Below, piece after piece: positions 30,250 through 31,407 of a stretch of DNA of 64,000 bases; within the stretch, counting starts at the first letter, position 1, and every line of letters begins with the position of its first letter. The position numbers and the translations under genes are program-made. This stretch comes from Escherichia coli. GTDB taxonomy: Bacteria; Pseudomonadota; Gammaproteobacteria; Enterobacterales; Enterobacteriaceae. The stretch lies in the NCBI RefSeq assembly GCF_013315695.1, contig NZ_CP054353.1, one strand, 5' to 3'. The notes beneath the pieces were generated by a model. The model did not search any database. It had not been told where the DNA came from and saw nothing but the letters and a program-made list of their open reading frames with translations.

Positions 30250-31209
30250 ATGACCGAATCAACAACCTCCTCCCCGCATGATGCGGTGTTTAAAACCTTT
30301 ATGTTCACACCCGAAACCGCACGGGATTTTCTGGAAATACATCTACCAGAGCCGCTGCGCAAGCTTTGCAACCTGCAAACTTTACGCCTGGAACCCACCA
30401 GCTTTATTGAAAAAAGTTTACGCGCTTACTACTCGGATGTTTTGTGGTCGGTGGAAACCAGCGACGGTGAAGGCTATATCTACTGCGTGATTGAACATCA
30501 AAGTTCCGCGGAAAAGAATATGGCCTTTCGGCTAATGCGCTATGCCACTGCCGCCATGCAACGTCATCTGGACAAAGGCTATGACAGAGTCCCGCTGGTG
30601 GTACCATTGCTGTTTTATCATGGCGAAACCTCGCCCTACCCGTACTCACTCAACTGGCTGGATGAGTTTGACGATCCGCAACTTGCCCGGCAGTTGTACA
30701 CCGAAGCTTTTCCGTTGGTGGATATCACCATCGTACCTGACGATGAGATCATGCAACATCGGCGTATAGCTCTGCTGGAACTGATTCAAAAGCATATTCG
30801 CGACCGCGATTTAATCGGTATGGTCGACAGGATCACCACGCTTTTGGTTAGAGGCTTCACTAATGACAGCCAGCTACAAACGCTGTTTAATTATCTGCTG
30901 CAATGCGGCGATACCTCCCGTTTCACCCGTTTTATTCAGGAGATTGCCGAACGTTCACCACTACAAAAGGAGAGATTAATGACTATTGCTGAACGGCTGA
31001 GGCAGGAAGGGCATCAAATTGGCTGGCAGGAGGGTAAGATTGAAGGTTGGCAGGAGGGGAAATTGGAGGGTTTGCAGAAAGGCAAAGTAGAAGGTATGCA
31101 TGAACAAGCCATTAAAATTGCCTTGCGCATGCTGGAACAGGGCTTTGAACGTGAGATTGTGCTGGCGACAACCCAACTCACTGATGCTGATATTCCGAAC
31201 TGTTATTAA
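30250..31209 (+). CDS. rpnB: Recombination-promoting nuclease RpnB (YhgA-like, transposase_31 / PD-(D/E)XK family)
   Basis: 319-aa [39 protein letters not shown]...; C-terminal region with repeats [25 protein letters not shown]. Confidence 0.88.
30979..31209 (+). CDS. Internal in-frame small ORF within the rpnB 3' end (RpnS-like C-terminal small protein, 76 aa)
   Basis: Strong SD aaaggag 7 nt upstream of an in-frame ATG ([20 protein letters not shown]...); the same SD+ATG module is repeated at ypaA. Confidence 0.5.
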
Positions 31210-31221
31210 AAGGAGAGATTA

Positions 31222-31407
31222 ATGACTATTGCTGAACGGCTACGGCAGGAAGGACATCAAATTGGCTGGCAGGAGGGTAAATTAGAAGGCATGCATGAAC
31301 AAGCCATTAAAATTGCCTTGTGCATGCTGGAACAGGGCATTGAGCGTGACCAGGTGCTCGCGGCCACTCAGCTAAGCGAAGCCGATCTGGCAGCGAATAA
31401 CCACTAA
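31222..31407 (+). CDS. ypaA: YpaA: free-standing duplicate of the RpnB C-terminal small-protein module (61 aa)
   Basis: [39 protein letters not shown]...; preceded by the same aaaggagagattaATG as the internal rpnB copy. Confidence 0.7.
   Translation: MTIAERLRQEGHQIGWQEGKLEGMHEQAIKIALCMLEQGIERDQVLAATQLSEADLAANNH

Follow-up and report, generated by a model that had tools for sequence, protein, structure and literature searches.

Rpn systems deserve a place in textbooks: the regulator is encoded within the very gene that it controls, and a tunable repeat serves as a 'ruler' for partner specificity. The RpnS proteins are antitoxins translated inside rpn genes (Zhong et al., 2023, PNAS 120:e2307382120, PMC10400941), and Ribo-RET peaks have been found at in-frame internal starts of all five rpn genes (Meydan et al., 2019, bioRxiv 10.1101/520783); an internal transcription start site has also been published. 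Toxicity and its neutralization are established for RpnA, RpnB, RpnC and RpnP2, and phage defense only for the plasmid protein RpnP2 (PMC10400941). The 4-amino-acid repeats vary among strains in all RpnS proteins, including the RpnSs proteins, and in the case of RpnC the long form (L) is blocked only by a small form (S) of equal repeat number; the downstream small rpn gene can vanish by deletion or fusion, and the structure of RpnA_S has been solved (PDB 7TH0) (PMC10400941). For rpnE, the internal product was reported to be closely similar to YpaA (Meydan et al., bioRxiv 10.1101/520783), ypaA has been renamed rpnE_Ss, and SPA-tagged RpnE_S, RpnE_L and YpaA have been detected in MG1655 (PMC10400941), with Ribo-RET and Onc112 peaks marking initiation of both rpnE_S and ypaA in K-12 (bioRxiv 10.1101/520783; PMC10400941). 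The rpnE–ypaA architecture, including its repeat variation, is already known, which bears out the match to reported Rpn systems drawn in a preliminary description of the DNA analyzed here, the exact pair having been published as rpnE-ypaA/rpnE_Ss (bioRxiv 10.1101/520783; PMC10400941). That description also invoked a toxic nuclease and phage defense; both have been shown in other Rpn systems (defense in RpnP2 alone), but they are extrapolated to RpnE, the K-12 version of which was inactive in all assays. Our search of the literature on RpnE and YpaA found nothing beyond the Meydan, Zhong and Kingston work, and no toxicity, neutralization or phage-defense results establishing such roles for RpnE.

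Within the 64,000-nucleotide stretch of Escherichia coli DNA that we analyzed (the window), the gene is, as judged by synteny, annotation, NCBIfam and Pfam, rpnE (yfaD, b2244) (Table 1). The preliminary description had named it rpnB, which was mistaken: the glpC and yfaU neighbors and the RefSeq and K-12 b2244 annotations identify rpnE, and RpnB is YfcI, whose gene lies elsewhere on the chromosome (PMC5350276). RefSeq genomes annotate the locus as rpnE; in K-12, b2244 rpnE once went by the name yfaD, and the gene after it, ypaA (b4543), bears a pseudogene flag. The gene order glpC-rpnE-ypaA-yfaU is common to K-12 and the window. The K-12 pair thus shares gene and locus with the window, including an identical Shine-Dalgarno sequence (SD) and ATG for each small ORF, and differs in its allele alone. 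Strain MS 21-1 is 100% identical to the window over 30100–31500 and differs by an indel in yfaV.

Table 1. Features of the rpnE–ypaA locus, with positions in the window.
Feature	Position	Strand	Basis or remark
Candidate hairpin that would occlude AGGUGA, the weak SD of the long form	30214..30246	+	MFE -13.5 kcal/mol, z -1.5
rpnE (yfaD) long form, RpnE_L, 319 aa	30250..31209	+	ORF, NCBIfam, annotation
PD-(D/E)xK nuclease domain, Pfam PF04754, residues 8-209	30271..30876	+	Pfam E 6.2e-88
Internal SD AAGGAG, codons K240-E241, 6 nt before the ATG	30967..30972	+	
rpnE_S, nested small protein of 76 aa, from Met244 to the C terminus of RpnE_L	30979..31209	+	in-frame ATG
Array of 12-nt (4-aa) GxxxG units lying in helix 1, with seven Gly spaced i, i+4 (G15-G39)	31018..31101	+	codon register, TRF, direct-repeat family D3
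ypaA SD AAGGAG, directly 3' of the rpnE stop TAA (31207-31209)	31210..31215	+	
ypaA (rpnE_Ss), 61 aa, one extra repeat unit, ancestral-type tail ..EADLAANNH	31222..31407	+	ORF
GC-rich terminator-like hairpin between convergent ypaA and yfaU	31415..31441		flagged on minus strand

Among 5,426 complete E. coli genomes, 5,420 contained the rpnE region, which in every match was present once, on the chromosome and flanked by glpC and yfaU, and none carried it on a plasmid. The glpC–yfaU position is conserved in Escherichia, Citrobacter and Salmonella, and the neighboring glpABC and rhamnonate genes are conserved across genera. The setting does not look like a defense island; no PADLOC (2023) model matched the locus, and an Rfam search of the window gave no match. 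The databases offer a different reading, in which an ISNCY-family transposase is followed by a pseudogene fragment with a 'missing N-terminus', and the PGAP product names, the K-12 pseudogene flag on ypaA and a 14-nucleotide inverted repeat flanking the module (30187–30200 and 31436–31449) could all be cited in its favor. We rejected that repeat as the ends of an element: chance alone should yield about 0.16 such pairs, and E. whittamii, Escherichia sp. E1V33 and Citrobacter no longer have it. An insertion sequence is further contradicted by the single chromosomal site, syntenic in other genera, and by a domain of the PD-(D/E)xK rather than the DDE type. Moreover, ypaA was intact with its own strong SD in 17 of 17 two-copy loci from complete genomes and its protein is detected in K-12, which contradicts the pseudogene status given in RefSeq. 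A transposase followed by a gene remnant is therefore a reading to which we assign next to no probability.

RpnE_L has the domain and the catalytic residues that define the Rpn (YhgA-like) recombination-promoting nuclease family, to which its sequence assigns it. It scored 709.5 bits against the RpnE equivalog NCBIfam NF007418 (cut-off 583) and 172.9 bits against the Rpn subfamily TIGR01784 (cut-off 52.1), and was 98% identical to K-12 RpnE outside a 20-amino-acid repeat insertion and 60% identical to RpnA over the whole proteins; a PDB sequence search with full-length RpnE as the query returned nothing relevant. In an alignment, D11, D63, E82, Q84, R94 and PDDE 163–166 are the same in the window RpnE and in RpnA, in which mutating D11, D63, E82, Q84, R94 or PDDE abolishes or alters activity (PMC5350276), and the first five of these catalytic residues are also invariant in K-12 RpnE. 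The likeness to RpnA_L/RpnA_S (YhgA) extends to the internal start at M244 and to the small helical domain. RpnA differs in being a demonstrably toxic nuclease, whereas the RpnE nuclease is predicted, and K-12 RpnA_S lacks both repeat units and a free-standing downstream copy.

When overexpressed, K-12 RpnE was inactive for recombination stimulation, toxicity and SOS induction (Kingston et al., 2017, PMC5350276), and EcoCyc and RefSeq label it 'inactive'. These observations would fit a domesticated or decaying relic, in which RpnE_L is no working toxin and the small proteins are vestigial or act independently, for instance as HTH DNA-binding regulators. In keeping with a relic, the syntenic position of rpnE is fixed across genera, PGAP and Pfam now call the small domain HTH, and some genomes have no RpnE_L yet keep both small ORFs intact. 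RpnE_L was lost through a frameshift, a Tn7-like insertion, a CAA codon turned into TAA immediately 5' of the SD or, in EC1515-type genomes, an internal stop; loss with the small genes kept fits toxin decay and, equally, an independent role for the small proteins. However, the inactivity assay is confounded by the presumed antitoxins, in that the construct co-expressed RpnE_S and the host carried chromosomal ypaA. Also at odds with a relic are the conservation of all the catalytic residues, the long ORF, which is intact in most sampled E. coli genomes and in all Escherichia outgroups, and a repeat hypervariability typical of active Rpn systems. On balance, we consider it unlikely that rpnE is a relic.

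As expected of an RpnL/RpnS gene, rpnE has an in-frame internal SD and start codon at what its sequence marks as the boundary between the N-terminal and C-terminal domains. The preliminary description had proposed that this SD and the ATG at 30979 open a frame for a 76-amino-acid protein, and both the motif and the ORF reading agree with it. The arrangement AAGGAG-N5-8-ATG occurs six times in the window, compared with 1.7 expected. At rpnE it is not a chance match, because the SD, spacer and ATG are identical in all 24 E. coli loci that we read, apart from an A or G at position -1; the SD is likewise kept as AAGGAG or AAGGAA in 16 of 16 loci of other species. RpnE Met244 and K240-E241, whose codons (AAG GAG) form the SD, align exactly with K240/E241/M244 of RpnA, where Met244 is the validated RpnA_S start and mutation of K240/E241/M244 abolishes RpnA_S (PMC10400941), and the RpnE and RpnA small proteins share identical first 11 residues. 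Local RNA folding placed the rpnE_S SD in an unpaired loop and left the ypaA SD unpaired too, and a consensus scan for a sigma-70-like promoter inside rpnE found none. Because the initiation region of rpnE_S in the window is identical to that of K-12, where the protein is known, RpnE_S is presumably translated in the window strain as well.

To model the 76-amino-acid RpnE_S, we used AF2 with a 19-sequence alignment (pLDDT 73), which gave a usable model where a single sequence gave a poor one (pLDDT 51). The model has helices at residues 3–53, 58–65 and 69–71, with the repeats lying within the continuous helix 3–53, and its best PDB match was 7TH0, RpnA-S (probability 0.99, TMt 0.73), at an E value of only 0.16 owing to the small size of the protein. 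At the sequence level, YpaA and RpnA_S (the PDB 7TH0 sequence) were 43% identical end to end by BLASTP (E 7e-12), with a single 12-amino-acid gap, at the repeat site, relative to the 49-amino-acid RpnA_S of 7TH0; the 7TH0 entry turned up only when RpnA_S itself was the query. Pfam now has a small-domain family, PF27070 (HTH_Rpn_C), which YpaA homologs carry. The YpaA homology, the AF2 match and the PF27070 homologs together identify RpnE_S as an RpnA_S-type small helical C-terminal domain.

We interpret rpnE as a two-module intragenic antitoxin locus, in which RpnE_S made from the internal SD and ATG checks RpnE_L and the repeats set the partners, a reading to which we give a probability of roughly 0.78. 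RpnE_L joins a PD-(D/E)xK nuclease domain to a small helical domain at its C terminus, the internal SD and ATG (30967/30979) would drive separate translation of RpnE_S (76 amino acids), and the matching SD and ATG would drive that of YpaA/RpnE_Ss (61 amino acids) just 3'. A strong, accessible SD would yield RpnE_S in excess; by way of its long first helix, the small protein would pair with its identical counterpart domain in RpnE_L and thereby keep the nuclease inactive, as suggested by homology with RpnA, RpnB and RpnC. The 12-nucleotide units would expand or contract by slippage or recombination, changing the helix length of L and S together, and their number would set which partners fit; RpnE_L and RpnE_S of the window, each with five extra units, would match by construction. 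Our analysis establishes the anatomy of the locus, its homologies, the intact active site, the repeat polymorphism and the polarity of the duplication, and the K-12 literature supplies internal initiation and both small proteins; the toxicity of RpnE_L, its neutralization by RpnE_S, a role in phage defense and the role of YpaA are all things that we infer. The population and outgroup results presented below leave this overall picture unchanged and sharpen the questions specific to RpnE: whether RpnE_L is toxic once the small proteins are removed, whether YpaA neutralizes the resident RpnE, and whether the locus defends against phage.

The free-standing gene repeats the signals of the nested one. 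AAGGAGAGATTA-ATG, as at the internal start, recurs after the rpnE stop (SD 31210, ATG 31222, end 31407), so that the ORF and direct-repeat readings confirm the earlier proposal that a second SD+ATG module opens the 61-amino-acid ypaA. The rpnE_S and ypaA modules are direct repeats, matching at 89% between 30965–31055 and 31208–31298 with a period of 243 nucleotides, and at 80% between their 3' parts, 31069–31191 and 31264–31386, with a spacing of 195 nucleotides. The 48-nucleotide difference in period corresponds to the extra repeat block of the internal copy. An extra repeat there had been noted in the preliminary description, which was right that it is present and that repeat number differs between the copies, but the block comprises 16 amino acids, or four 4-amino-acid (12-nucleotide) GxxxG-type units, and not one repeat, since the internal copy has 20 residues where ypaA has EGKL; TRF reported the array as three copies of a 24-nucleotide period at 31024–31095. 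Compared with K-12, RpnE_L and RpnE_S of the window have five more 4-amino-acid units (76 versus 56 amino acids for the small protein), while YpaA has the same unit number (61 amino acids) and four substitutions. The glycine-zipper nature of the repeat is a small new point. FliH/YscL GxxxG-repeat helices and the Yae1 deca-GX3 motif likewise place a Gly at every fourth residue of a long protein-pairing helix, and gave weak profile matches (FliH, E 1.5e-7 but far under the cut-off; Yae1_N, E 0.22), which reflect not homology but a compositional or structural analogy only.

Copy number and repeat number both vary among E. coli strains. In 60 genomes taken systematically down the ranking of 5,420, 35 (~58%) had two modules and 25 (~42%) had one, and in either class the loci varied in length by multiples of 12 nucleotides. 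We read repeat counts in 24 loci from complete genomes, 17 of them two-copy, thereby making the comparison of repeat number across strains that had been suggested at the outset: counts ranged from 0 to 8 in the internal copy (0, 1, 3, 5, 6 or 8 extra units) and from 0 to 6 in ypaA (0, 1, 2, 4 or 6 units). The repeats begin at residue 14–18 of the small protein, and rpnE accordingly has the strain-variable 4-amino-acid repeats, 8–20 residues after the initiating Met, that characterize RpnL/RpnS pairs. The (n, m) pairs, internal copy first and ypaA second, were 5/1 (the window), 0/1 (K-12), 5/0, 5/2, 3/1 and 6/4, as well as 8/0, 8/1, 8/2, 8/4, 8/6 and 1/4. None of the 17 two-copy loci had equal counts in both copies, which means that the YpaA helix differs in length from that of the resident RpnE_L in each sampled two-copy locus. 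This mismatch is not statistically significant, and we rejected it as a signal of selection because random pairing of the counts gives a probability of about 0.5 of seeing no match. In the window strain, the one unit and different tail of YpaA make it an improbable cognate inhibitor for the RpnE_L encoded beside it. The nearest parallel is rpnC, which in some strains is followed by rpnC_Ss and in which the number of 4-amino-acid repeats decides which S blocks which L; it differs in being an independent duplication in another paralog, and the matching by repeat number is a result obtained with RpnC.

The two copies also differ in their tails. In the E. coli loci read, the internal copy always ended in ..FEREIVLA[AT]TQL[TS]DADIPN[CG][HY] and ypaA always in ..[IF][DE]RD[QL]VLAATQLSEADLAANNH. 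An alignment of the two copies had been proposed as a way to date the duplication; in the window, rpnE_S and ypaA barely differ through the head and tail codons 1–14 (dS ~0 in those tail codons), whereas over the last 17 shared codons dS is ~1.8 (saturated) and dN ~0.29, values that are rough because they rest on few sites. The pattern indicates, at the level of sequence, that the 5' part of the two copies has been homogenized and that the distal tail of the in-frame copy is older or foreign. A search for a source of the divergent ..PNC[HY] tail on plasmids and phages returned only mislabeled chromosomes or weak (54%) matches.

Outgroups supplied the polarity of the duplication. A degenerate-pattern scan with one genome per species yielded 16 loci; a single in-frame module sits at the glpC locus in E. 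albertii, E. whittamii and two cryptic Escherichia clades, and also in Citrobacter sedlakii, C. werkmanii, C. youngae and Salmonella diarizonae. The tails of the Escherichia outgroups are of the ypaA type (EADLAANNH, EADLAAKPH and EADLTEKNH), and E. coli ypaA tails share 84–98% DNA identity with these single-copy rpnE tails, compared with only 73–79% between the in-frame ..PNC[HY] tail and any Escherichia outgroup tail. Because the outgroups are single-copy with a ypaA-type tail and the in-frame tail is the divergent one, ypaA is, by this comparison, the holder of the ancestral 3' end of rpnE. Its description as a tandem duplicate therefore stands in that it is the second module of a direct repeat, but it is not simply a downstream copy, as shown by its outgroup-type tail. 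This polarity goes modestly beyond the Rpn papers cited here, and is one of a few small new points of similarly modest reach, alongside the mismatch in repeat number between the copies, the glycine zipper and the possible SD-sequestering leader hairpin described below.

In single-module strains, the N-domain of rpnE is joined to a tail of the ypaA type. One single-copy locus (L009) combines an internal-type repeat array with the ypaA tail, and another, from a GTDB representative (L025), has a mosaic tail; as read from the sequences, some single-module alleles, L009 among them, clearly arose as fusions. Such alleles raise the idea that ypaA is a silent or spare cassette, a recombination donor that swaps the tail and repeat number of RpnE by unequal crossing-over or gene conversion. 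The purpose of ypaA would then be to switch specificity and not to act as an antitoxin, which is compatible with RpnE_S acting as the antitoxin of RpnE_L. The recombinant alleles L009 and L025 speak for a cassette, as do the near-identical heads and proximal tails set against a saturated distal tail and the unequal counts in 17 of 17 two-copy loci. Yet ypaA is not silent, since a strong SD of its own precedes it and K-12 produces the protein (PMC10400941); pairs with n=m can be expected to be missing by chance; and the observed recombinants are deletions (fusions) rather than demonstrated reciprocal switches. We regard a cassette role as improbable. A broader proposal, also quite unlikely though marginally less so, is that ypaA is a displaced ancestral module kept as a recombination partner or as an orphan inhibitor of non-resident RpnE, with the leader hairpin separately setting a low L:S ratio. 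If this were true, the in-frame position would now be taken up by a divergent S cassette of greater age (tail ..DADIPNC[HY]), and retention of ypaA would allow tail and repeat number to be switched, yielding the single-copy fusions and mosaics. Three-module arrays appeared on two metagenome contigs and in none of the 5,426 complete genomes, and may be rare or misassembled.

Upstream of rpnE, the candidate leader hairpin has arms that are conserved in the rpnE leaders of Escherichia, Citrobacter and Salmonella; RNAalifold detected no compensatory changes there. Judging from the predicted fold, the hairpin could possibly sequester the long-form SD and limit translation of RpnE_L, which we offer as a lead only. 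At the other end of the locus, the GC-rich hairpin 3' of the last S module is conserved in all Escherichia loci.

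The long form of RpnE has been inactivated in several strains in which both small ORFs, the nested one encoding RpnE_S and the free-standing ypaA, remain intact together with their Shine-Dalgarno (SD) sequences. The lesions comprise an internal stop codon (strain EC1515, locus L046), a frameshift (L038), a CAA-to-TAA change just before the SD that ends the long form (L039), and a Tn7-like tnsA/tnsB insertion (L041). The length of the EC1515 locus, 604 nt, was common to ten complete genomes among the matches listed, with EC1515 being the only one of these for which we read the sequence.

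The sole SD-like element for the start of the long form was AGGUGA, 9 nt before the ATG, which a predicted leader hairpin can bury by pairing CGUCAUC with GGUGACG and UGUC with GACA (-13.5 kcal/mol, z -1.5). Both arms were kept across the rpnE leaders of Escherichia, Citrobacter, and Salmonella; the loops differed, and no compensatory changes in the arms were found in these leaders. The excess of small over long Rpn products (RpnS over RpnL) might stem from this predicted hairpin.

Coordinates of features in and around the rpnE-ypaA module
Feature	Window position	Strand	Description
Inverted repeat, 14 nt	30187-30200 and 31436-31449		Brackets whole rpnE-ypaA module
Candidate SD-burying hairpin	30214-30246	+	Predicted fold 5' of rpnE start (30250)
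4-aa repeat array	31018-31101		RpnE_S residues 14-41
yfaV	32269-33597	-	Intact ORF, 442 aa counted from first in-frame start

The 4-aa repeats of RpnE_S place a glycine at every fourth position of a glycine-zipper-like helix. The helix has seven such glycines (six consecutive GxxxG motifs) in RpnE_S of the window, three in YpaA, and two in RpnE_S of K-12. Its profile matches to FliH and Yae1_N, at their GxxxG-repeat regions, were weak.

Two ENA metagenome contigs, L042 (2222-2905) and L043, carried three-module arrays, in which rpnE with its in-frame small ORF was followed by a free-standing small ORF with the ..PNCH tail and then by one of the ypaA type (8/4/0 and 1/4/1 repeat units per module in the two contigs). 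Because no such array was present in complete E. coli genomes among the matches listed, these arrays are either rare or assembly artefacts.

The inverted repeat flanking the module, complementary at 13 of 14 positions, was judged fortuitous, because E. whittamii, Escherichia sp. E1V33, and Citrobacter have not kept it and its frequency was near chance expectation. Downstream, strain MS 21-1 was otherwise near-identical to the window but had lost ~257 nt of yfaV, annotated there as a frameshifted MFS transporter. The window, with its intact yfaV, therefore comes from a close relative of MS 21-1 and not from that strain. In strain F2_81 (L016), a single-module rpnE had a different C-terminal end (..EADLAPLSLQ) and was directly followed by yfaY, the rhamnonate genes yfaU-yfaX being deleted with an endpoint within the small-protein tail.
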